From sequence record MN218775.2: a stretch of DNA of 39,253 nt. The stretch is one strand, 5' to 3'. Shown piece after piece: positions 2,873 to 35,667 of this stretch. Position 1 is the first letter of the stretch. Every line of letters begins with the position of its first letter. Below the pieces are notes generated by a model. It searched no databases. It was not told the DNA's origin and saw only the letters and a list, made by a program, of their open reading frames with translations. This stretch comes from Escherichia virus ECG4. Both the position numbers and the translations under genes were made by a program.

Positions 2873-5554
2873 ATGAGCGTCATCTCTATTGACAAACATG
2901 ACTTCTCTGATGTGTCGAACGCCATTGAGCCGTTTAACCTGCTGGCTGACCACTACGGACAAGACCTTGCAGTCAAACAGCTTCAGCTTGAGCATGAGGC
3001 ATATACAGAAGGCGAGCGACGTTTCATCAAGAACCTTGAGCGGCAGACTGAGCGCGGGGAACTGGCAGACAATCAGGTCGCCAAGCCTTTGATGCAGACT
3101 CTGGTCCCTAAGATTGCGCAAGCCGTCAGGGAGTGGCACGAAGGCCTAGACGGGAAGCTGTCAACCTCGCGTCCTAGCGTAGCGTTCACCATGTTGAGCA
3201 CTGAAGAGAAGGCCGTTAAGGACCGCTCTATGCGCATCTCCTGTGAGTCCGCTGCGGTTATCATACTGAAGGTCATACTCTCCAAGCTGGTCAAGCCTGA
3301 AGGGATACCGATTACACCGATGGCCTCCGCGATAGGTCGCACGCTTGAGGACGAAATCCGCTTCGGTCGCATCCGTGACAAAGAGAAGGAGCACTTCAAG
3401 AAGGCGATAGCTGATAACCTGAACAAGCGAGCTGGGGCATCCTACAAGAAAGCCTACATGCAAGCGGTCGAGGCGTCCATGCTGGAGCAAGGCCAACTGG
3501 AAGATGCATGGGGTACTTGGAGTCCTACAGAGGCTGTACACGTTGGCATCAAGATGCTCGAGATTGTCATCCAGTCAACACAACTGGTCGAGCTTAAGCG
3601 GTACGGTGCTGGTAATGCAGCGGCTGACGTAGAGATGGTCCACCTGTCAGACTTCTGGGTCAAGAAGATGGCACAACGAGGATTCAGCCTTGCGGGTATC
3701 GCTCCAGTCTACCAGCCTTGCGTCGTTCCACCTAAGCCGTGGACTGGTGTCGTAGGTGGTGGGTACTGGGCCAAAGGTCGCAGACCGTTACCATTGATTC
3801 GCTTAGGGTCTAAGTCTGCGGTAGCACGTTATGAAGACGTATACATGCCTGAAGTCTATGACGCTGTGAACATCATTCAGAATACACCTTGGAAAGTTAA
3901 CAAGAAGGTATTGGACGTGGTGAACATGGTCGAGAAGCTGAACAACACGCCTATTAATGACATCCCTCAGATGGAACCGCTGAAGCCTGAGGACTATGCT
4001 GGTGAAACCGAGGAGGAACTCAAGGCATGGAAGAAGGCTGCTGCTGGTATCTATCGCCGCGAGAAGGCCAGACAGTCACGCAGATTGTCCATGAGTTTCA
4101 TCGTTCACCAGGCCAACAAGTTCTCACAGTTTAAGGCCATCTGGTTCCCGTACAACATGGATTGGCGAGGTCGTGTCTACGCTGTCCCGATGTTCAACCC
4201 TCAGGGTAACGACATGCAGAAGGGGCTCCTGACTCTGGCAGTCGGCAAGCCTATCGGGGCGGATGGTTTCAAATGGCTTAAAGTCCACGGTGCAAACTGT
4301 GCGGGTGTCGATAAAGTCACCTTCGATGAGCGCATCAAGTGGGTGGAAGACAACCACGAAAACATCATGGCTGCTGCTAAGGCACCGATGGATAGTATTG
4401 AGTGGTGGGGCAAGTTAGACTCTCCGTTCTGTTTCCTCGCGTTCTGCTTCGAGTATGCTGGCGTAATGCACCACGGCCTGTCTTACTCCTGCTCGCTGCC
4501 GATAGCGTTCGATGGGTCCTGCTCTGGTATTCAGCACTTCAGTGCGATGCTTCGTGACCACATCGGTGGACATGCAGTAAACCTGACGCCATCCGGCATG
4601 GTACAAGACATCTACCGCATTGTGTCTGACCGCATTGAGGAGGAGCTTAAAGTCCTTCTGATTAACGGTACTGACAACGAGATGGTCACTCACGAGGATA
4701 AGAAAACTGGTGAGATTACCGAACGTATCAAGCTGGGGACACGAGAGCTGGCCCGTCGGTGGCTGACATACGGTATGTCACGCAAGGTCACTAAGCGTTC
4801 AGTCATGACTCTGGCATACGGGTCGAAAGAGTACGGATTCGCAGACCAAGTTTACGAGGACATCGTGATGCCAGCGATTGACTCAGGGTCTGGCGCTATG
4901 TTCACTGAACCAAGCCAAGCGTCTCGCTTCATGGCAAAGATGATTTGGGAAGCTGTGAGTGTGACAGTAGTTGCTGCGGTTGACGCGATGAAGTGGCTTC
5001 AAGGTGCTGCCAAGCTGCTGGCTGCTGAGGTGAAGGACAAGAAGACTGGGGAAATCCTGAAGCCTTGCCTTCCGGTACACTGGGTCACACCTGATGGGTT
5101 CCCGGTCTGGCAGGAATACCGCAAGAAGGATACCACTCGTCTGAACCTGATGTTCTTAGGGTCCTTCAACCTTCAACCTACGGTCAACAAAGGTACGAAG
5201 AAAGAGCTGGACAAGCACAAGCAGGAGTCAGGCATTAGCCTTAACTTCGTCCACTCACAAGATGGTAGCCACCTGCGGAAGACTGTAGTCCACACTCACA
5301 GCAAGTATGGCGTGATGTCATTCGCAGTGATTCACGATAGCTTCGGGACCATCCCTGCTGACGCTGAGTATCTGTTCCGTGGTGTCCGTGAGACGATGGT
5401 CGAGACATACCGCGATAACGATGTGCTGCTTGACTTCTACGAGCAGTTTGAATACCAGCTTCATGAAAGCCAGCGCGACAAGTTGCCTGAGCTTCCGAAG
5501 AAAGGTAAACTGAATATCGAAGACATCTTGTCTTCAGACTTTGCATTCGCTTAA
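2873..5554 (+). CDS. Single-subunit DNA-directed RNA polymerase (T7 gene 1 homologue), 893 aa
   Basis: Length and colinear similarity to T7 RNAP, including the C-terminal HSQDGSHLRKTVV ... DSFGTIPADA ... SDFAFA. Confidence 0.97.
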   Translation: MSVISIDKHDFSDVSNAIEPFNLLADHYGQDLAVKQLQLEHEAYTEGERRFIKNLERQTERGELADNQVAKPLMQTLVPKIAQAVREWHEGLDGKLSTSRPSVAFTMLSTEEKAVKDRSMRISCESAAVIILKVILSKLVKPEGIPITPMASAIGRTLEDEIRFGRIRDKEKEHFKKAIADNLNKRAGASYKKAYMQAVEASMLEQGQLEDAWGTWSPTEAVHVGIKMLEIVIQSTQLVELKRYGAGNAAADVEMVHLSDFWVKKMAQRGFSLAGIAPVYQPCVVPPKPWTGVVGGGYWAKGRRPLPLIRLGSKSAVARYEDVYMPEVYDAVNIIQNTPWKVNKKVLDVVNMVEKLNNTPINDIPQMEPLKPEDYAGETEEELKAWKKAAAGIYRREKARQSRRLSMSFIVHQANKFSQFKAIWFPYNMDWRGRVYAVPMFNPQGNDMQKGLLTLAVGKPIGADGFKWLKVHGANCAGVDKVTFDERIKWVEDNHENIMAAAKAPMDSIEWWGKLDSPFCFLAFCFEYAGVMHHGLSYSCSLPIAFDGSCSGIQHFSAMLRDHIGGHAVNLTPSGMVQDIYRIVSDRIEEELKVLLINGTDNEMVTHEDKKTGEITERIKLGTRELARRWLTYGMSRKVTKRSVMTLAYGSKEYGFADQVYEDIVMPAIDSGSGAMFTEPSQASRFMAKMIWEAVSVTVVAAVDAMKWLQGAAKLLAAEVKDKKTGEILKPCLPVHWVTPDGFPVWQEYRKKDTTRLNLMFLGSFNLQPTVNKGTKKELDKHKQESGISLNFVHSQDGSHLRKTVVHTHSKYGVMSFAVIHDSFGTIPADAEYLFRGVRETMVETYRDNDVLLDFYEQFEYQLHESQRDKLPELPKKGKLNIEDILSSDFAFA

Positions 5555-8300: not shown

Positions 8301-8375
8301 ATGTTTAAGAACTTAATGTTCAATCGTTTTATTACAAGATTCCACCTGTCTCACAACCCGTTCTGCTTGCATTAA
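8301..8375 (+). CDS. Possible 24-aa peptide ORF
   Basis: ATG with strong AAGGAGG RBS 6 nt upstream, directly after the promoter; very short, so weak. Confidence 0.25.
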   Translation: MFKNLMFNRFITRFHLSHNPFCLH

Positions 8376-8554
8376 GCGCAGCAACGAGTAGACTACTTCG
8401 GGAAGGCCGTTAAGCTGTCACCTACAGTTTCTTCGCTAATTACTCGCGAGTCAAAGCTGAAGGCTCGCACGAAAGGCCAACTTTACGTACCTGTGGTCTT
8501 TACAAAGTGGCCTCGCGTTCGTCTGTTCGTTGAGGTCGTGAAGGAGATGTTCTG

Positions 8555-8893
8555 ATGGGATTTTGTTATAGCACATACTGTGAAGCATGTAATGGTGACG
8601 ACCGCTTCCCGCACGTTGGTAAACTTGTAGGTAACAAACTACAAGAAATTATCGACGCTGTCCGCAAGCCGTCCCACTATCAGGTCTTTGATGGTGTGGA
8701 ATCCATTGAGATTATCGCCCGGTCCATGACTGTCAGCGAGTTCCGTGGTTTCTGCATGGGTAACGTCCTGAAGTATCGACTCCGAGCTGGTAAGAAGTCC
8801 GAGCTGGCTACTATGGAGAAGGACCTAAACAAAGCGGCCTTCTATCAGGAGCTGTTCGACCTGCATAAAGGTAAGTGCTATGCTGCCGAGTGA
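8555..8893 (+). CDS. Hypothetical protein, 112 aa (Cys-rich N-terminus; possibly DUF3310-like)
   Basis: ORF with GGAG RBS; CxxC pair near the N-terminus (YCEACNGDD); family assignment is a guess from memory. Confidence 0.6.
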   Translation: MGFCYSTYCEACNGDDRFPHVGKLVGNKLQEIIDAVRKPSHYQVFDGVESIEIIARSMTVSEFRGFCMGNVLKYRLRAGKKSELATMEKDLNKAAFYQELFDLHKGKCYAAE

Positions 8894-10338: not shown

Positions 10339-10562
10339 TGACTCAAGAAGTTAAGGTCGTTCGTCAGCGTCTGACCATTGATAAGATCCCGGTAGGCTAT
10401 GCGTTTATCATCCACGGTAAGCCTGGTGAAGTGTACGTGAAGATTAGTAACTCTCACGTCTTCAACCATAAGTTGCTACAGATGCATACCACGGATGCTA
10501 ACCGTTTCCAACGTCATCTGAACCTAGTAGCCGTAGAGCTGGTGGTGTACGATGGTGAGTAA
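10338..10562 (+). CDS. Hypothetical protein, 74 aa, inserted between genes 3 and 3.5
   Basis: ATG overlaps the gene 3 stop; AAGGAG RBS. T7 has no gene at this junction. Confidence 0.5.
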   Translation: MTQEVKVVRQRLTIDKIPVGYAFIIHGKPGEVYVKISNSHVFNHKLLQMHTTDANRFQRHLNLVAVELVVYDGE

Positions 10563-11010
10563 GGTTCAGTTCAACCCACGGTCCCGGACTGACGCTATCT
10601 TCGTTCACTGTTCGGCTACCAAGCCAGATATGGACATCGGGGTAGAGACCATCCGTATGTGGCACAAGCAGCAAGGCTGGCTGGACGTAGGCTACCACTT
10701 TATCATCAAGCGAGATGGCACTGTGGAAGAGGGTCGCCCGGTCAATGTCGTAGGGTCACACGTTAAGGACTGGAACTCAAAGTCCGTAGGCGTCTGCCTT
10801 GTAGGTGGAATTGACGCTAAGGGCAAGTTTAAAGCTAACTTCACTCCGGCCCAGATGCACTCCCTGCGCAACAAGCTGGCTGACCTGAAGGCCCTGTATC
10901 CTCAGGCAGAAATAAAAGCACACCATGACGTAGCACCTAAGGCGTGTCCAAGTTTCGACTTGCAACGCTGGCTGACTACCAACGAACTGGTCACTTCCGA
11001 CCGAGGTTAA
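10552..11010 (+). CDS. N-acetylmuramoyl-L-alanine amidase / T7-type lysozyme (gene 3.5 homologue), 152 aa
   Basis: DAIFVHCSATKP ... GWLDVGYHFIIKRDGTVEEGR ... GVCLVGGID ... HHDVAPKACPSFDLQRW ... NELVTSDRG, near-identical motifs to T7 lysozyme. Confidence 0.95.
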   Translation: MVSKVQFNPRSRTDAIFVHCSATKPDMDIGVETIRMWHKQQGWLDVGYHFIIKRDGTVEEGRPVNVVGSHVKDWNSKSVGVCLVGGIDAKGKFKANFTPAQMHSLRNKLADLKALYPQAEIKAHHDVAPKACPSFDLQRWLTTNELVTSDRG

Positions 11011-11034
11011 TAAACTCTAAAGGAGAATAACTCA

Positions 11035-11247
11035 ATGATTAAACTTATCGAATTTCTCGGTCGTCTGGTGGTGCGTGGTTATCGTCGTGCTGCGGTTATG
11101 GAACGAAAGGTAGCAGAGAAGACTGCTGACGGTGCGGCTGATGCTGCTGCTCTGGCTGACAAGCTGACCATCGCGTCACTGGAAGCTGGCATGAAGGCAC
11201 GTCAGGCTGACACCAAAGCTGACCAGTTGTCTAAGTTCTTCAACTGA
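11035..11247 (+). CDS. Hypothetical protein, 70 aa (hydrophobic N-terminus, Ala/Lys-rich tail)
   Basis: ORF with AAGGAG RBS. Confidence 0.55.
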   Translation: MIKLIEFLGRLVVRGYRRAAVMERKVAEKTADGAADAAALADKLTIASLEAGMKARQADTKADQLSKFFN

Positions 11248-11253
11248 CTGAAG

Positions 11254-11278
11254 GCTAAACTATCACCTTAGGGATGGG
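11254..11278 (+). promoter_or_regulatory. Degenerate phage-promoter-like sequence (CT in place of TA at -4/-3)
   Basis: TAAACTATCACCTTAGGG at 11256-11273; the upstream 12 nt are consensus but the initiation region is altered. Confidence 0.35.
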
Positions 11279-11326
11279 ACCATGAGTCCTTTCCCTTTGT
11301 TCGCATTTGTGATTAAGGAGTGACCA

Positions 11327-11344
11327 ATGGCTTTTTTTTTTTAA
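11327..11344 (+). other. Apparent authentic gene 4 start codon followed by an in-frame TAA inside a T11 homopolymer
   Basis: AAGGAG RBS, then ATG GCT TTT TTT TTT TAA. The codons after the stop translate to [28 protein letters not shown], matching the T7 gp4A zinc-binding N-terminus. Confidence 0.6.
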
Positions 11345-13105
<1,761 letters not shown>

Positions 13106-13234
13106 ATGTACAAATGGTGGAGTGATGAAGCAACCTGCCTGTCCAACATTCTGGGAGACCAAAGGTTCGACTCTAAGGCATGGAAGAGAGCTAACCGGAA
13201 GTTTATGTATCACTTCTTGCGTACAGACTTCTAG
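13106..13234 (+). CDS. Possible small protein, 42 aa
   Basis: ATG immediately after the gene 4 stop (TAAATG); no clear RBS. Confidence 0.3.
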   Translation: MYKWWSDEATCLSNILGDQRFDSKAWKRANRKFMYHFLRTDF

Positions 13235-13298: not shown

Positions 13299-15470
13299 AT
13301 GTTTGACCTTAAGAGTATCTGGGGTTCTGACATAGAGACCAACGGTCTCCTTGATACAGTATCCCAGTTTCACTGTGGGGTCCTGATTAACGCCGAGTCG
13401 AATGAGACCCTTAAGTATGGGGTAGCTCCGATGGTCGGTATCGTCGGTGGCTTCAAAGAGTATGTACAGAAGGTGGAAGAGATTGCCGCATCACCTGATG
13501 GTATGCTGGTATTCCACAACGGTATCAACTATGACGTCCCGGCTATTGACAAGCTGAAGCGTCTGTACTTTGGGAAACGCTTTAACTTCCCGAAACACAA
13601 GATGATTGATACCTTGGTGCTGGGACGCTTGATGTATCCAAACATTAAGTTCTCAGACATGGGCGCAGTGAAAGCTGGTCGTCTGCCACCTAAGATGATG
13701 GGACGCCAGTCTCTTGAGGCTTGGGGCTATCGTCTCGGTGAGATGAAAGGTGAGTACAAACACGATTACGTTGCCAAGTGCAAGGCTGAAGGTATCGAAT
13801 ATAAGGCTGGGGACGAATGGTTGTTCCCATCTCAGGAGATGCTAGACTATAACGTTCAAGACGTTGTGGTCACACTGGCGTTGTTCAAGAAGTTCCTGAC
13901 TGACAAGTATTACTTCCAGTCTGAACAGTTCGCTTTCGACCAGATTTATGCGTTGCGTCTGGAACATGATGCTGCGTGGACCTGTGCGAAGATGGAACGT
14001 AACGGCTATCCGATGAACACCGAGATGGTCGAAGGCTTATATCGTGAACTCACCGTCAAACGTGCAGAGTTGTTGGACAAGCTGCGTTCGACTTTCGGTA
14101 GCTGGTATGCACCAAAGGGAGGCAAGGAGTTCTTCAAGCACCCACGGACAGGCAAGGACCTTCCGAAGTATCCGCGAGTCGTGTATCCTAAGGTCGGGTC
14201 AGTATTCAAGAAGCCGAAGAACAAAGCTCAACGATTAGGTCTGGAGCCTTGCGAGTTCGACTCACGAGACACGATGGAAGGAGCACCGTTCACACCTATC
14301 ACTTACGTTGAGTTTAATCCGGGAAGCGGAGACCACTTAGCGAAAGTCCTGATGGAGCGTGGCTGGGAGCCTGTGGACTTCACTGACACCGGGAAACCTG
14401 TAGTCGATGACGAGACGTTAGAACACGTTAAGTTACCAGACGAAGAGGCTCAGGCTTGCGTAGAGCTGGTCCGTGAGTATCTGGTAGTCCAGAAGCGCAT
14501 CGGTCAGGCTGCTGAAGGTAAGAACGCATGGTTGAAACTTGTAGGTCCAGACGGACGTATGCACGGTTCAATCAACCCATGCGGGGCAGTAACCGGACGT
14601 GCTACTCATAGTTCACCAAACATGGCTCAGGTCCCTGCTAACGGTGCTCCGTATGGTGAGATTTGCCGTGGTGCTTTCGGTGCAGCTTGGAACAAGACGG
14701 ATGGTAAGCCAGACCCTTGGATTCAAGTGGGCGTGGATGCCTCAGGTCTTGAGCTTCGTTGTCTGGGGAACCGAGCGGCCCCGTTTGATGGTGGAGCCTA
14801 TGCGAAGACTGTGGTAGAAGGGGACATCCACTGGGCCAACGCAGTAAACGCTGGGTTAGCACCTAACGTCCCACGCGATAAGTCGAACCACGACCATGAG
14901 GCTTTCCGTAACAACGCTAAGACGTTCATCTATGCGTTCCTGTATGGTGCAGGGGCCGCTAAGATTGGACTGATAGTCGGTGGCGGTAAGAAGGAAGGTT
15001 CAGCTCTCATGAAGAAATTCATTGAGGGTACACCAGCTATCAAGGATCTGCGAGAGGCTGTGAAGAATACGTTAATCTCAGACTCTAAGTGGGTGGATGG
15101 AGAGAACATCGTCAAGTGGAAACGCCGTTGGTTGCGTGGACTTGATGGTCGCCGTATCCACATCCGGTCGCCGCACTCAGCACTTAACGCCTTACTTCAG
15201 GGTGATGGTGCGGTGGTCTGTAAACACTGGCTTGGCGAGATGGAACCTAAGCTTTACGAGGCATTTTACCTGCATGGCTGGGATGGTGACTTTGCGTTTA
15301 TGGCTTTTGTCCATGATGAAGTTCAAGTTGCCGGCCGGACTATGGAAATAGCTGAGGACATCGTTAAGGTGGCGCAATCCACAATGCGAGAGGTTGGAGA
15401 GTTCTACAAGTTCAAGTGTGTACTTGACACCGAGGGAAAGATAGGATTTACGTGGCGGGAGTGTCACTAA
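13299..15470 (+). CDS. DNA polymerase (T7 gene 5 homologue), 723 aa
   Basis: Family A polymerase order: N-terminal 3'-5' exonuclease (SDIETNGLL), then palm/fingers; length close to T7 gp5. Confidence 0.95.
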   Translation: MFDLKSIWGSDIETNGLLDTVSQFHCGVLINAESNETLKYGVAPMVGIVGGFKEYVQKVEEIAASPDGMLVFHNGINYDVPAIDKLKRLYFGKRFNFPKHKMIDTLVLGRLMYPNIKFSDMGAVKAGRLPPKMMGRQSLEAWGYRLGEMKGEYKHDYVAKCKAEGIEYKAGDEWLFPSQEMLDYNVQDVVVTLALFKKFLTDKYYFQSEQFAFDQIYALRLEHDAAWTCAKMERNGYPMNTEMVEGLYRELTVKRAELLDKLRSTFGSWYAPKGGKEFFKHPRTGKDLPKYPRVVYPKVGSVFKKPKNKAQRLGLEPCEFDSRDTMEGAPFTPITYVEFNPGSGDHLAKVLMERGWEPVDFTDTGKPVVDDETLEHVKLPDEEAQACVELVREYLVVQKRIGQAAEGKNAWLKLVGPDGRMHGSINPCGAVTGRATHSSPNMAQVPANGAPYGEICRGAFGAAWNKTDGKPDPWIQVGVDASGLELRCLGNRAAPFDGGAYAKTVVEGDIHWANAVNAGLAPNVPRDKSNHDHEAFRNNAKTFIYAFLYGAGAAKIGLIVGGGKKEGSALMKKFIEGTPAIKDLREAVKNTLISDSKWVDGENIVKWKRRWLRGLDGRRIHIRSPHSALNALLQGDGAVVCKHWLGEMEPKLYEAFYLHGWDGDFAFMAFVHDEVQVAGRTMEIAEDIVKVAQSTMREVGEFYKFKCVLDTEGKIGFTWRECH

Positions 15471-15488
15471 TGGCTATGACCAAACGGT

Positions 15489-15746
15489 ATGCGAGTTTCG
15501 TTCTCGCTGGGTGCTGTGTTTCCAACTGAAAACGTGGAGAACTTCAAGAAGACTCTCTGCGAGCTGAGCCGTAAGGTCCTCAACGGAGAGAAGACCACTG
15601 GTTTTGAGCATAAGATGGTAGAGGTTGGTGTAACTGAAGGTCTTGAAGCTGTAGTCGAACTGGTCATCAAGAAAGTTATCGTCGAGCAGCTGAAAGAAGA
15701 CCTGAGCGATTACGATAGCCAGCCGAGCTTTGGCAACTTCCGGTGA
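15489..15746 (+). CDS. gp5.5-like protein, 85 aa, with an apparent frame break at its 5' end
   Basis: ORF starts MRVSFSL...; a 19-codon ORF (15470-15529, MAMTKRY...) overlapping the gene 5 stop is one nucleotide out of frame with it. Confidence 0.5.
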   Translation: MRVSFSLGAVFPTENVENFKKTLCELSRKVLNGEKTTGFEHKMVEVGVTEGLEAVVELVIKKVIVEQLKEDLSDYDSQPSFGNFR

Positions 15747-15756
15747 GGTTCAAGCA

Positions 15757-15966
15757 ATGAGTGAATACTTACGGGTCCTAGCGGCCCTTAAGTCCTGCCC
15801 GAAGACCTTCCAGTCCAACTATGTGCGCAACAACGCTGCACTTGTGGCTGAGGCTGCGAGTCGTGGACATCTAAGCTGCCTGTCTATGGACGGGCGTAAC
15901 AACGGTGCGTGGGAGATTACCGCTGCTGGCACCAAGTTCCTGAATCAACACGGAGGCTGTCTATGA
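15757..15966 (+). CDS. gp5.7-like protein, 69 aa
   Basis: LKSCPKTFQSNYVRNNAALVAEAASRGHLSCL ... GAWEITAAGTKFL matches T7 gp5.7; internal ATG with GGTGAGG RBS chosen. Confidence 0.75.
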   Translation: MSEYLRVLAALKSCPKTFQSNYVRNNAALVAEAASRGHLSCLSMDGRNNGAWEITAAGTKFLNQHGGCL

Positions 15967-17196: not shown

Positions 17197-17257
17197 TTAG
17201 GACCTAAGATATGACTATAAGATAGACTTTAGTCTTAACTTAAAGAGGAGATTCAAG

Positions 17258-21006: not shown

Positions 21007-21029
21007 ACTAAACTATCACTATAGGGAGA
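21007..21029 (+). promoter_or_regulatory. Phage RNAP promoter (phi10-like), full consensus including GGGAGA
   Basis: TAAACTATCACTATAGGGAGA at 21009-21029, +1 G at 21024. Confidence 0.8.
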
Positions 21030-23306: not shown

Positions 23307-25664
23307 ATGCCACTTATCACACAAAGCATCAAAAATCTTAAAGGTGGAATTAGCCAGCAGCCTGACATACTGAGGTTCTCAGACCAAGGCGAGGCGCAGG
23401 TTAACTGCTGGTCATCAGAGAGTGATGGCCTCCAGAAGCGTCCACCTACAGTCTTCAAGCGACGTCTTAACATCGACGTTGGGAGCAACCCTAAGTTCCA
23501 CCTGATTAATCGTGACGAGCAGGAGCAGTACTATATAGTGTTCAATGGGTCCAACATTCAGGTAGTTGACTTGAGCGGTAATCAATACTCAGTGTCCGGT
23601 GCGGTAGACTACGTTAAGTCCTCCAACCCACGAGATGACATCCGTGTCGTTACCGTGGCAGACTATACGTTCGTCGTTAACCGTAAGGTTGTCGTCAAAG
23701 GTGGAAGCGAGAAGTCACACTCTGGTTATAACCGTAAAGCACGAGCTTTAATTAACCTGCGTGGTGGGCAGTATGGTCGAACCCTTAAAGTGGGAATCAA
23801 CGGTGGCGTTAAGGTCTCGCATAAGCTACCAGCAGGTAATGATGCCGAGAATGACCCACCTAAGGTGGACGCTCAAGCCATTGGGGCAGCTCTGAGAGAC
23901 CTTCTTGTTGCTGCTTACCCTACCTTCACGTTCGACCTTGGGTCTGGCTTCCTGTTAATCACTGCCCCTTCAGGGACTGACATTAACTCAGTGGAGACGG
24001 AGGATGGTTACGCTAACCAGCTAATCAGCCCAGTACTCGACACAGTGCAGACAATCTCTAAGTTACCTCTTGCAGCTCCAAATGGGTACATCATTAAGAT
24101 TCAAGGTGAGACCAACAGTAGCGCCGATGAATACTACGTGATGTATGACTCCAATACTAAGACGTGGAAGGAGACAGTTGAGCCGGGAGTTGTCACTGGG
24201 TTCGACAACACCACAATGCCACATGCTCTGGTAAGACAGTCTGACGGCTCCTTTGAGTTCAAGACTCTGGATTGGTCCAAGCGTGGTGCTGGTAACGATG
24301 ACACAAACCCTATGCCTAGCTTCGTGGATGCTGCGATTAATGATGTGTTCTTCTACAGGAACAGGCTAGGGTTCTTGTCTGGTGAGAACGTAATCATGAG
24401 CCGTTCAGCCAGCTACTTTGCGTTCTTCCCTAAGAGTGTGGCGACACTGAGTGATGCTGATCCTATTGATGTAGCTGTAAGTCACCCTCGAATCTCAATC
24501 CTTAAGTATGCCGTTCCGTTTAGCGAGCAGCTACTACTTTGGTCGGATGAGGTTCAGTTCGTGATGACAAGCTCTGGGGTCCTTACCTCGAAGTCTATCC
24601 AGCTTGATGTAGGCTCAGAGTTTGCCCTAGGTGACAATGCCAGACCGTTCACTGTAGGACGCTCAGTCTTCTTCTCAGCTCCTCGTGGGTCATTCACCAG
24701 TATTAAGCGATACTTCGCTGTAGCTGATGTATCTGATGTGAAGGATGCAGATGATACAACTGGTCACGTACTGTCCTACATCCCTAACGGGGTGTTTGAT
24801 ATTCAAGGTACAGGTACTGAGAACTACATCTGCGTCAACTCTACAGGTGCATACAACCGAATCTACATCTACAAGTTCTTGTTTAAGGACGGAGTACAGC
24901 TTCAAGCCTCTTGGTCACACTGGGAGTTCCCTAAAGATGATAAGATTCTGGCGTCTGCTTCTATTGGCTCTACCATGTTCATCGTTCGTCAGCACCAAGG
25001 AGGGGTAGACATTGAGCACCTTAAGTTCATCAAGGAGGCAACTGACTTTCCCTCAGAGCCATATAGACTACACATTGACTCCAAGGTGTCTATGGTAATT
25101 CCAATTGGCTCATATAATGCTGACACCTATAAGACTACGGTTGACATTGGTGCTTCTTATGGTGGCAACGCTCCGTCTCCCGGTCGGTACTATCTGATTG
25201 ACAGTCAGGGTGCTTATGTGGACCTTGGGGACTTGTCCAGTATCTCTACTGTGATTACCCTCAACGGCGATTGGTCAGGACGTACAGTGTTCATCGGACG
25301 GCCCTATCTGATGTCCTACAAGTTCTCACGGTTCCTGATTAAGATTGAAGATGATAGTGGCACTCAGTCTGAAGACACTGGTCGTCTACAGCTTCGTCGG
25401 GCTTGGGTCAACTACAAGGACACTGGCGCTCTGAGACTAATTGTCAGAAACGGTGAGCGGGAGTTCGTGAATACCTTCAACGGGTACACACTTGGTCAGC
25501 AAACCATAGGGACTACAAACATTGGTGACGGGCAGTATCGCTTCGCTATGAATGGTAACGCATTGACCACGAGTCTAACCTTAGAGTCCGACTATCCTAC
25601 CCCAGTGTCAATCGTTGGTTGTGGCTGGGAGGCGTCATACGCTAAGAAAGCTCGTTCCGTTTAA
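23307..25664 (+). CDS. Tail tubular protein B (T7 gene 12 homologue), 785 aa
   Basis: Position and length. Confidence 0.9.
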   Translation: MPLITQSIKNLKGGISQQPDILRFSDQGEAQVNCWSSESDGLQKRPPTVFKRRLNIDVGSNPKFHLINRDEQEQYYIVFNGSNIQVVDLSGNQYSVSGAVDYVKSSNPRDDIRVVTVADYTFVVNRKVVVKGGSEKSHSGYNRKARALINLRGGQYGRTLKVGINGGVKVSHKLPAGNDAENDPPKVDAQAIGAALRDLLVAAYPTFTFDLGSGFLLITAPSGTDINSVETEDGYANQLISPVLDTVQTISKLPLAAPNGYIIKIQGETNSSADEYYVMYDSNTKTWKETVEPGVVTGFDNTTMPHALVRQSDGSFEFKTLDWSKRGAGNDDTNPMPSFVDAAINDVFFYRNRLGFLSGENVIMSRSASYFAFFPKSVATLSDADPIDVAVSHPRISILKYAVPFSEQLLLWSDEVQFVMTSSGVLTSKSIQLDVGSEFALGDNARPFTVGRSVFFSAPRGSFTSIKRYFAVADVSDVKDADDTTGHVLSYIPNGVFDIQGTGTENYICVNSTGAYNRIYIYKFLFKDGVQLQASWSHWEFPKDDKILASASIGSTMFIVRQHQGGVDIEHLKFIKEATDFPSEPYRLHIDSKVSMVIPIGSYNADTYKTTVDIGASYGGNAPSPGRYYLIDSQGAYVDLGDLSSISTVITLNGDWSGRTVFIGRPYLMSYKFSRFLIKIEDDSGTQSEDTGRLQLRRAWVNYKDTGALRLIVRNGEREFVNTFNGYTLGQQTIGTTNIGDGQYRFAMNGNALTTSLTLESDYPTPVSIVGCGWEASYAKKARSV

Positions 25665-33033: not shown

Positions 33034-35667
33034 ATGTCCACGATTACACAATTCCCTTCAGGAAACACTCGTTACAGGATTGAGTTCGACTACCTAGCCA
33101 GAACGTTTGTTGTTGTTACGCTGGTGAATAGCTCTAACCCTGCCCTGAACCGTGTACTGGAAGTTGGTCGAGATTACCGATTCCTTAATCCAACGATGAT
33201 TGAGATGTTGGTTGACCAATCAGGTTTCGACATCGTTCGTATTCACCGTCAGACTGGAACTGACTTAGTGGTAGACTTCAGGAATGGCTCAGTGTTGACA
33301 GCTAGTGACCTGACCAATGCAGAGCTTCAGGCTATCCATATTGCAGAAGAAGGTCGAGACCAAACTGTTGACTTAGCGAAGGAATATGCCGATGCTGCTG
33401 GTAACTCTGCTGGCAACGCTAAGGATAGCGAGGACGAAGCACGACGAATCGCTGAGAGTATCAAGGCATCTGGTCTTCTTGGCTATATTACCCGTCGCTC
33501 CTTCGAGAAAGGCTTCAACGTTACAATATGGAACGAGGTACTGCTATGGGAAGAGGATGGTGATTATTACCGATGGGATGGTGGACTGCCAAAAAACGTA
33601 CCTGTTGGTTCAACTCCTGAAACGTCTGGCGGCGTTGGTTTGGGTGCGTGGGTTAGTGTTGGTGATGCGTCATTGCGCGCCGATATTGCAAACCTTTACC
33701 AACCGGAACAAATTTATTCGGCACAAAAACGGGAAACACTGTCTACAGTCCTGAGCAGCCGTTGGGCTAATTCGGGAGCAGATAAAAAGAAATTCGTTTT
33801 GACCTGCCATTACTATTCCCAGATTACGATGCTATTCTGGCGGCACACCCTGACTGGACGTTTATTTATCCGGGGTCATTCTGTATCGGGGATGATGGCA
33901 AAATCTATATTACATATGGCCCAAGTAACAACGCAGCTACGGAACGTTTCGTTGTACTTTACTCAGGTGAAGGTGAATACTTACGTATCTCCAGACTATT
34001 ATTGGAGGCACCGGGGTAAATGGTTCTGCGGTATCCGAGGGATTATCGTAACCAATTACTATGGTTCACTTAAGTTATTCCTTGATCCTACGATGGTAAC
34101 TTACCTGAGTTTGATATCTCAGCAGTGCCCTACGGCACCACGATTAGCTATACAGCGTTACACCAAGTGGGTCTGGGCATTAACCGTCAACGTAATGTTA
34201 TTGCGTACTTCAACCCGCATTTGCATTAACTGGTTTCACGGAATTTTCTCCGTATCATGCTGGATACATCACGTCAACTACTACTCATTACGGGTCACTT
34301 CAAACTATGCGACAAGCAATCTGTTTAGCTCCCGGTGTTTTGATCATGGCATTTGGTGGTGTTTACATTACAGGAACAACTGTACAAGCGCCTACTATTT
34401 ATCAGGGTACAAGCATTTAGCACTGATGGGCACAAAATGGTACAGGCAGTACTACCCCTACTCATTTTATTACTGTTTTGATGCTACAGGGTTAATGACC
34501 TCTCGTATAGAGAATCAGGGTGTCTGCTATTCAAATGGTCAAGTATTTACTTTCTGGATTTATATCAATACAACTGCCTCAAATGCGTATACTATCGGTA
34601 TCCTGATTACTCAAGAATATTCGAACTCCCCGGATTTGATTTTTCTGGGGCGGTTACGGTATCCCCGGTTACGATACTGTTCGAATGGCTTCTGGGTTTA
34701 CCCTCGTATTCTCTTACAGATCTGGATGGAGTTGCCTACCCAATTGGGATACAGCTTCATATCAGCAACCTCAATAACCTCAGCTTCTATAGATCAGACT
34801 GGGCCACTACCCGTAAGACTCTGCGCGTTACTTATCACACTTCCGGTTATACCGTATTTACTGGGGCTATCGGTTTACAGACTTATCGCTTATCCCTCAA
34901 TAATACTGACTCTGGTGCATTATCCCAAGGTCGAATTGCAGCTAGGGCTTTCGGTAATAAAACTTTATCCGAATCAGAACAGATTCTTGTCCTCGATCAA
35001 CAAAGTTCCGCATCTGCACATTCTCTTATCTTACGTGGTGGATCGTCGGTATTTAAGAGTGCTACGTCTATTATATCTATACGCCATCGAATACTGCCAC
35101 CTACGGTTTCGGGCGACGGATTACTACCAAAACATACATCTCTACGTCCATACACAGATAACGCTTACAATTTACGCGGCCCAGCATTACGTGTGGCTCA
35201 AGTCTTCGCAGCGATTGGTACTATTAATACGTCCGACTCCCGTGAAAAACTTACCCGTTTCAAATCTCGGATCATATCCTTCATGCCTGGGCGACGTGCA
35301 GATAATCACGTACAAGTGGTTATCTTCTATTGCGGGTACAGGTGCAGATTCTGCTCGTTGGCATTTCGGGTATTTGCCCAGCAAGTTCGTGATGCCTTCG
35401 TATAGCATGGTTTCATGGTACTACCTTCGGTCTGCTTTGCTATGTCGAGTGGGAAGATCAGTATCAACCTCAGTTCGTTCATCAGGTTATCACTGTTATT
35501 ATTCATGGTGTAGATACCGAAGTTACCCGTCAAGTGGAAACCGGTATTACCATACTTACTACAGCTGCCGGTCATCGCTGGGGCATTCGTCCAGATCAGT
35601 GTTTCTGGTTGAGGCCGCTTATCAGCGACGTCGCTGCGACAGGATTGAAACACGACTGACTGACTGA
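33034..35667 (+). CDS. Tail fiber/tailspike ORF, 877 aa: T7 gp17-like N-terminal adaptor domain, then an anomalous central region
   Basis: N-terminal about 230 aa matches T7 gp17 ([36 protein letters not shown]). From about 33750 to 35600 the open frame encodes a Tyr/Cys/Trp/His-rich, Asp/Glu/Lys-poor sequence. The ORF ends in the three-frame stop TGACTGACTGA. Confidence 0.5.

Follow-up and report, generated by a model that had tools for sequence, protein, structure and literature searches.

A conserved and probably attenuated phi3.8-like promoter upstream of gene 4 in a K1F-type phage genome

The site upstream of gene 4 and its altered melting region

Just upstream of the primase/helicase gene of Escherichia virus ECG4, a phage promoter-like sequence carries a consensus binding element followed by an altered initiation region. 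This raises the question of whether it is a deliberately weak promoter for the replication genes, the decayed remnant of a promoter, or an element acting mainly in some other way. The window analysed here is the whole 39,253-bp stretch of MN218775.2, a T7-like phage of the genus Kayfunavirus (K1F-like), whose genes follow a T7-like order from left to right. The 2-kb stretch around the site shares 99.4% identity with Escherichia virus LS3 (MN518893.2, referred to below as LS3 v2) and about 94% with many further Kayfunavirus genomes.

All the genes concerned lie on the + strand. The RNA polymerase gene is found at 2873-5554, and the homologue of gene 3.5 (lysozyme/amidase; 10552-11010), at whose place an endolysin or amidase is annotated in LS3, Peacock, SH3 and K1F, serves as the upstream landmark of the module. 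It is followed by a small ORF in the gene 3.7 position (11035-11247), which in relatives ends with a TAA stop codon at -15 to -13 of the promoter and in the window is cut early by a 2-nt insertion at 11242-11243. This ORF is named gp3.7 in the record of Cronobacter phage Dev2; as a sequence comparison with T3 gp3.7 revealed no similarity, the window ORF is to be regarded as a gp3.7 equivalent by position only. Downstream of the site come a ribosome-binding site (TAAGGAG, 11314-11320), the start codon of gene 4 (ATG, 11327-11329, the same ATG as annotated in LS3, Peacock and SH3) and the DNA polymerase gene (13299-15470).

When the window was searched for the promoter core, 11 sites were found, all on the + strand, vs 0.92 expected from shuffles. 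The ten promoters other than the one considered here have their +1 at 2798, 6429, 8270, 9143, 17191, 20012, 21024, 25706, 32982 and 38663, and yield the consensus (A/C)CT(A/T)AACTATCACTATAGG(G/A)A. The site itself (11254-11278, GCTAAACTATCACCTTAGGGATGGG) reads GCTAAACTATCAC-CTTA-GGGATG from 11254 to 11276. Its polymerase-binding half (-17 to -5, 11254-11266, GCTAAACTATCAC) agrees with the genome's own consensus at 12 of 12 positions from -16 to -5 (11255-11266, CTAAACTATCAC), and at -17 it has a G where the other promoters have A or C. Its melting region (-4 to -1, 11267-11270) is CTTA vs TATA in the consensus: the base at -4 (11267) is C, a position occupied by T in 10/10 of the other promoters, and the base at -3 (11268) is T, where nine of the ten have A, while -2 and -1 agree with TATA. 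The predicted start, followed by the initially transcribed sequence GGGATG (11271-11276), is the G at 11271, at the fixed spacing from the binding element, on the + strand, in the intergenic stretch between the 11035-11247 ORF and gene 4, and 56 nt upstream of the gene 4 ATG. The opening GGGA is of the late type, the four other early/middle promoters of the window starting with GGAC or GGAT.

A match due to chance was considered and rejected. The 12-mer, with at most one mismatch allowed, has 11 matches in the window, which coincide with the 11 promoter sites and lie on the + strand throughout, vs 0.13 expected from shuffles; a total of 11 was reached in 0/100 shuffles. With a weight matrix built from the ten other promoters, the site itself being left out, the site scores 20.6 bits, compared with 32.9-37.3 bits for the ten others and 15.1 bits for the best background match. 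The binding half (-17 to -5) accounts for 18.8 bits (20.2-23.5 in the ten others) and the initiation half (-4 to +6) for 1.7 bits (9.8-14.2 in the ten others), so that the score deficit lies entirely within the initiation half. The same contrast is seen with the phi10-like promoter at 21024: it shares with the site the -16 to -5 element, the GGGA start and a hairpin beginning at +1, but it has, like similar consensus sites, TATA at -4 to -1 and an initiation half of 12-14 bits. The original prediction is thus confirmed in its description of a promoter-like sequence before gene 4 whose initiation region is altered. No other phage promoter was found in the window between 11271 and 17191, and a scan of the region for sigma-70 promoters returned none. 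A promoter at 11271 would explain how transcription reaches genes 4-6.

Conservation among K1F-type relatives and the quality of this copy

The site, its CCTT included, is identical in LS3 v2, Peacock, SH3 and K1F. To look more widely, 80 loci were gathered by gene 4 homology, without use of the promoter motif. All K1F-type relatives among these loci have the site, in some cases further upstream owing to an insertion; four close relatives have another promoter type at the same place, and none of the loci has a degenerate version of the site. In 24 distinct K1F-type 100-mers, the positions -16 to -4 and -1 to +5 are invariant, which is in part imposed by the search pattern, -3 and -2 each differ in one sequence, and -17 and the upstream coding sequence vary freely. 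With -4 to -1 left free, the pattern matches 19 IMG/VR contigs, all within the loci gathered by gene 4 homology, and all of them have CTTA except one, which has CTAA.

GenBank gives the same picture. A 50-mer with CCTT is found at 100% identity in 53 phage records, vs no GenBank phage record at 99% identity or more for the same 50-mer with TATA. The shift in identity band between the two 50-mers agrees with this in about 180 GenBank Kayfunavirus records with a single exception, a count obtained from BLAST identity bands and not from a sequence-by-sequence reading. The exception, Klebsiella phage SEA1f, has CACCATAGGG, i.e., CATA, still with C at -4, and Ro45lw has CACCTAAGGG, i.e., CTAA. Across these records, C at -4 is universal in the K1F lineage and the non-TATA form is fixed in it.

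Cronobacter phage GW1, a Kayfunavirus with 91% identity in gene 4, has a promoter consensus of another kind, TTAAACCCTCACTATAGG. Its sequence in the homologous position is CTTAAACACTCACTAAAGGGATG, i.e., the GW1-type binding bases, non-consensus at -10 and -2. The binding bases have thus followed the specificity of the polymerase, which would be expected only of a place where polymerase binding is important. Judged from this comparison, selection acts separately on the promoter half. The proposal that the site might be a decayed one is not borne out, given the invariance of -16 to -4 and -1 to +5 in the 24 K1F-type sequences, the fixation of the non-TATA form across the about 180 records and the change of the site together with promoter specificity in the GW1-type sister lineage.

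The site has gone unmarked in the records of these K1F-type relatives. The K1F records (NC_007456, DQ111067) contain CDS features only and no promoter annotation, no promoter is annotated in the LS3, Peacock and SH3 records, and the Ro45lw record annotates seven phage promoters, the gene 4-proximal site not being among them. The present analysis would add to K1F-type genomes a predicted promoter and a processing site for which the K1F, LS3, Peacock, SH3 and Ro45lw records carry no mark.

A sequencing error at the site was considered and rejected, as the window and LS3 v2 do not differ within 11254-11305 and the relatives are identical. Elsewhere, 322 differences in 128 clusters separate the window from LS3 v2, many of them being changes to T, or swaps between A and T or between C and G (examples are found at 2248-2449, 5567, 8301-8555, 11242-11243, 13025-13027, 13070-13234 and 15471-15764). 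Relative to LS3 v2, eight annotated ORFs have lost their start or end stop, contain an internal stop or are frameshifted; the stop codon of gene 4 is TAC instead of TAA, so that the ORF runs on to 13105. Gene 4 of the window starts with ATGGCTTTTTTTTTTTAAGAAGAG, with an in-frame TAA at 11342-11344, vs ATGGCTTTGATTTCGGAAGAAGAG and an intact ORF in LS3 v2. The run of 11 T with the in-frame TAA at 11332-11344 is specific to this copy, the counterparts being TTTGATTTCGGAA, with an open frame, in LS3 v2 and ATGTCATACGATGACCAAGAC in the other relatives. Since so many differences from LS3 v2 leave eight ORFs broken, the anomaly that had been remarked upon at the gene 4 start, although it is indeed present in this copy, is most likely a sequence error. 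The promoter is not affected by it, as the window and LS3 v2 have the promoter in identical form. A further observation concerns the tail-fibre gene (33990-35580), where complement-type differences from LS3 v2 (A for T, C for G and the reverse, e.g., TCTCTC vs AGAGAG) are dense and result in 56 amino-acid changes with the frame unbroken, a pattern suggestive of faulty base calling or assembly in one version or the other.

Relationship to the phi3.8 promoter and the R3.8 stem-loop of T7 and T3

The position of the site, between gene 3.5 with the 3.7-position ORF and gene 4, is that of a known module. In T7 and T3, gene 3.5 lies directly upstream of the promoter phi3.8, as the gene 3.5 homologue lies upstream of the site in the window. 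T7 phi3.8 (+1 at 11180), which follows the lysozyme gene 3.5, reads TAATTGAACTCACTAAAGGGAGACCACAGCGGTTTCCCTTTGTTCGCA, and its window counterpart reads CTAAACTATCACCTTAGGGATGGGACCATGAGTCCTTTCCCTTTGTTCGCA. Both consist of a promoter, then a hairpin from +1, then an identical tail, TTTGTTCGCA (11296-11305 in the window), located between the lysozyme and primase/helicase genes. Both are also non-consensus promoters with a hairpin and a regular start (GGGAGA, the consensus, in T7 and GGGA in the window), although the deviations differ: T7 phi3.8 is off consensus at four positions, -13, -12, -11 and -2, and the window site at -4 and -3 (and at -17 in this genome). Two further differences are that the HNH gene 3.8 stands between promoter and gene 4 in T7, whereas gene 4 comes directly next in the window, and that the binding specificity of the window site is of the K1F type (AACTATCAC), unlike that of T7.

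The T3 record (AJ318471) gives the order gene 3.5, gene 3.7, promoter phi3.8 (10603-10625), RNase III site R3.8 and gene 4A, the R3.8 stem-loop (10616-10642) spanning -4 to +23. The phiYeO3-12 record (AJ251805) shows the same gene order and the same stem-loop, with R3.8 marked as putative. As in the window, both phages have a small ORF in the 3.7 position whose end abuts or overlaps the promoter, and a stem-loop that overlaps -4 to -1. In the T7 transcriptome, the phi3.8 start lies just upstream of the R3.8 cleavage site, and transcript abundance falls downstream of R3.8 late in infection (PMC6938266).

In the window, the RNA starting at +1 is predicted to fold into the hairpin GGGAUGGGAC-CAUGA-GUCCUUUCCC (11271-11295, -13.9 kcal/mol), the hairpin start at +1 being followed by TTTGTTCGC. 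Its stability stands out from that of shuffles by a z of only -2.16, and a search of 10900-11500 against Rfam matched no family. Comparison between phages is more telling. The module was found in 26 distinct variants from T7 and from T3-, K11/KP32-, BA14/Kvp1-, GW1- and K1F-type phages; each was folded singly from its predicted +1 and the pairs were compared from the outside in, a cross-genus MAFFT alignment having been left out as structurally inconsistent, stem and loop lengths being different. In 26/26 variants, a hairpin of 19-26 nt is predicted whose first paired base is +1, with energies from -9 to -17 kcal/mol. In the stem, compensatory changes are seen at pairs 5-8 (e.g., UG/GU/GC, GU/AU/GC and GC/AU/CG), and G7-C becomes A7-U within Kayfunavirus. 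The tail that follows is the same or nearly so in T7 and in K1F-, GW1- and BA14/Kvp1-type phages, and differs in T3-type (TTTGTTCTCG) and K11-type (TGTTGTCGC) phages. Besides this site, the phi10-like promoter at 21024 is the only promoter of the window with a hairpin anchored at +1, a feature also found at phi3.8 and phi10 in T7.

In RNA that reads through from upstream, -1 to -4 are predicted to pair with the four bases after the hairpin, giving an extended stem from -4 to +29 (11267-11299) equivalent to the T3 RNase III site R3.8. In the K1F type, this extension consists of an A(-1)-U pair, a UU/UU internal loop and a C(-4)-G pair. In T7, T3-type and GW1-type RNAs, AAA pairs with UUU and a U.G pair is added, the UAAA of T3 pairing fully with UUUG whereas the CUUA of the K1F type leaves the internal loop closed by C-G. 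In K11-type RNA, ACA pairs with UGU, the off-consensus C at -2 having a G of the tail as its partner. In the fold predicted for T7, the non-consensus -13 to -9 (UGAAC) pairs with GUUCG in the conserved tail, which suggests that the deviations of phi3.8 from consensus also serve the R3.8 stem. Two other ideas were abandoned. The -4C/-3T change brings no clear net gain to the read-through stem, C(-4)-G replacing U.G while U(-3).U replaces A-U; and a pairing of AUCAC (-9 to -5) with a downstream GUGAU is not conserved in Peacock or in another group of the gathered sequences (L014-type).

A promoter that falls short of its consensus is common to the lineages compared. The K11-type site is off at -2 relative to the K11 consensus. 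The T3 site is off at -10 relative to the consensus known from the literature, the GW1 site at -10 and -2 of its own consensus, and the K1F type at -4 and -3. On sequence grounds, none of the lineages examined (T7, T3, K11, GW1 and K1F types) has a full consensus promoter at this position, and the deviations differ between them.

By its position and sequence, the site is the K1F-type orthologue of the T7/T3 class II promoter phi3.8 together with the R3.8 stem-loop, and it is most likely a conserved, attenuated middle-gene promoter. The original prediction had rightly seen a promoter-like sequence with an altered initiation region; it had missed the orthology to phi3.8 as well as the conserved hairpin anchored at +1 (R3.8) and the fact that -4 to -1 fall within an annotated stem. 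According to the folds, -4 to -1 would be constrained both as promoter DNA and as RNA of a processing stem, and this dual constraint may be the reason why the promoter never reaches consensus. As these positions lie in the RNA stem, their conservation could reflect the RNA function and not a tuning of promoter strength. The site would in any case illustrate neatly, on a small scale, how one regulatory element can be constrained at two levels, as promoter DNA and as stem-loop RNA.

Some relatives have additional sequence between this module and gene 4. In Klebsiella phage SEA1f (218-296 of locus L110) and in one other relative (1324-1402 of locus L006), a tRNA-Thr gene (anticodon CGT) lies between the phi3.8-type hairpin and tail and the ribosome-binding site of gene 4; K11-type phages have at the same place a tRNA-like stretch that ARAGORN does not call. 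In four other loci (L018, L023, L025 and L038), about 130-340 bp of inserted sequence stand between the phi3.8-type module and gene 4. At least one such insertion encodes an HNH-like ORF, which recalls gene 3.8 of T7 in the same location.

Expected strength, alternative explanations and other promoter-like sites

The effect of the altered melting region can be judged by analogy from a barcoded T7 promoter library, in which linear PCR products served as templates for in vitro transcription (Komura et al., 2018; PMC5937735, supplementary file S2). The wild-type T7 promoter has a value of 169 +/- 19 there and the -4C/-3T variant TAATACGACTCACCTTAGG a value of 3.63, i.e., 2.1%. A -4C variant with a near-neutral -13T gives 10.9 (about 6% of wild type), a -3T variant with -13T gives 29.3 (about 17%), and a -2A variant is like wild type (PMC5937735). 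The variant TAATACGACTCACCTTAGG carries the same -4 T to C and -3 A to T changes as the site in an otherwise identical -8 to +2 context, the T7 and window consensus promoters being identical from -8 to +2, but it has the T7 binding region and was read with T7 polymerase on a synthetic linear template, whereas the site is of the K1F type. The RNA polymerase of the window is 64% identical to that of T7 and its intercalating hairpin is not conserved, T7 V237 aligning with A, so that the 2% figure, which comes from a single barcode, could under- or overstate the penalty here. The transfer from T7 nevertheless appears reasonable. Nearest-neighbour energies make the -5 to +2 duplex 1.4 kcal/mol more stable than the consensus in CTTA, CTAA and CATA alike.

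By this analogy, the two lineage-fixed base changes probably make the site weak. The phage RNA polymerase would bind the fully consensus -16 to -5, and the C:G pair at -4 together with the T at -3 would impair the opening of -4 to -1; we infer, from one measurement with another enzyme, a site that binds polymerase normally and opens or initiates poorly. With opening impaired in this way, initiation at G 11271 by the phage's own polymerase, itself expected from the analogy with T7, would be infrequent, on the order of a few percent of that at a consensus promoter. The transcripts produced would open with a stable 5' hairpin (+1 to +25) and continue into gene 4 (primase/helicase), gene 5 and gene 6. 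In the read-through RNAs started at upstream promoters, which would be the more abundant ones, the +1 hairpin sequence and -4 to -1 would together form the longer stem that corresponds to the T7/T3 processing site R3.8, and RNase III would be expected to cut the predicted stem here as well. Since -4 to -1 are also part of the read-through stem, they would serve two functions. The deliberately weak promoter for replication genes envisaged in the original prediction is therefore plausible as far as the analogy with T7 carries, and the site is an unannotated orthologue of a known promoter/processing module, with a lineage-fixed change in the melting region that is probably attenuating. General understanding is left unchanged by a site that is real and conserved, but ordinary. 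Of practical use could be CACCTTAGGG, a natural candidate for a low-strength variant in orthogonal expression pairs of K1F-type polymerase and promoter. A more elaborate version, to which we assign a small probability, is that of a conditional promoter, tightly bound and opening only under, e.g., high negative supercoiling early in infection or before gp3.5 accumulates, which would make it a timer for replication-gene transcripts; if so, the defects of this promoter in every subfamily lineage examined would reflect convergent selection for a switch.

The strongest competitor of the attenuated promoter, although an unlikely one in our judgement, is an element that is essentially an RNA-processing or stability signal, an R3.8-type RNase III hairpin whose promoter half is silent and whose conservation reflects RNA or other constraints. 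It would fit the annotation of the R3.8 stem from promoter -4 on in T3 and phiYeO3-12, the extension of the helix into -1 to -4 in T7, T3-, GW1- and K11-type RNAs with the pairing of the K11-type C at -2 to the tail G, the about 2% activity left by -4C/-3T in T7 (PMC5937735) and the omission of this site from the seven promoters listed for Ro45lw. It does not account for -12 to -5, which lie outside the hairpin and are noncoding, yet are invariant in K1F-type genomes and in the GW1 lineage give way to binding bases of the GW1 type, as selection for polymerase binding predicts; nor was a conserved partner for -16 to -5 seen in the K1F-type read-through folds, and the homologous site is annotated as a promoter in T7 and T3.

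Still less credit is due to the idea that the hairpin and TTTGTT form a partial terminator or pause for upstream transcription, lowering the expression of genes 4-6, with the promoter-like sequence being incidental. A simple scan does flag GGGACCATGAGTCCT + TTCCCTTTGT as terminator-like, but two such sites in the window vs 0.6 +/- 1.0 in shuffles are not significant, and the tail UUUGUUCG is interrupted, without a clean U-run. The T7 class II pause motif is ATCTGTT, which CTTTGTT in the window matches at 5/7 positions and CTCTGTT in K1F at 6/7. The drop of T7 transcripts downstream of R3.8 late in infection could speak for termination, but the study that describes it argues against this, the drop being absent early in infection (PMC6938266), and the conserved binding element would be left unexplained. 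A decayed remnant, a chance match or a TA to CT sequencing error in this copy has next to no probability left. The many apparent errors of the window relative to LS3 v2 would make an error conceivable, but none of the differences falls within 11254-11305, LS3 v2, K1F, Peacock, SH3 and the IMG/VR relatives all have the identical site, and 0.13 12-mers are expected by chance, so that the conservation data, as sequence comparisons, refute this explanation.

Finally, other promoter-like sequences were noticed. A weaker one, CCTAAGATATGACTATAAGATAG (15.1 bits), lies at 17203-17225; its would-be +1 at 17220 follows that of the phi6.5-like promoter (17191) by 29 nt, and the sequence is conserved in K1F as well as LS3 and still recognisable in Ro45lw and GW1. 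On the - strand near the right end, CTTTAACTATCTGTATAGGAGGG (12.9 bits), running from 38821 leftward, is the only reverse-strand match above 6 bits. Ro45lw (at 12453 of locus L090) and GW1 (at 23828 of locus L089) have an extra promoter, CACTGTAGGATAG, upstream of gene 5, which is absent from the window.
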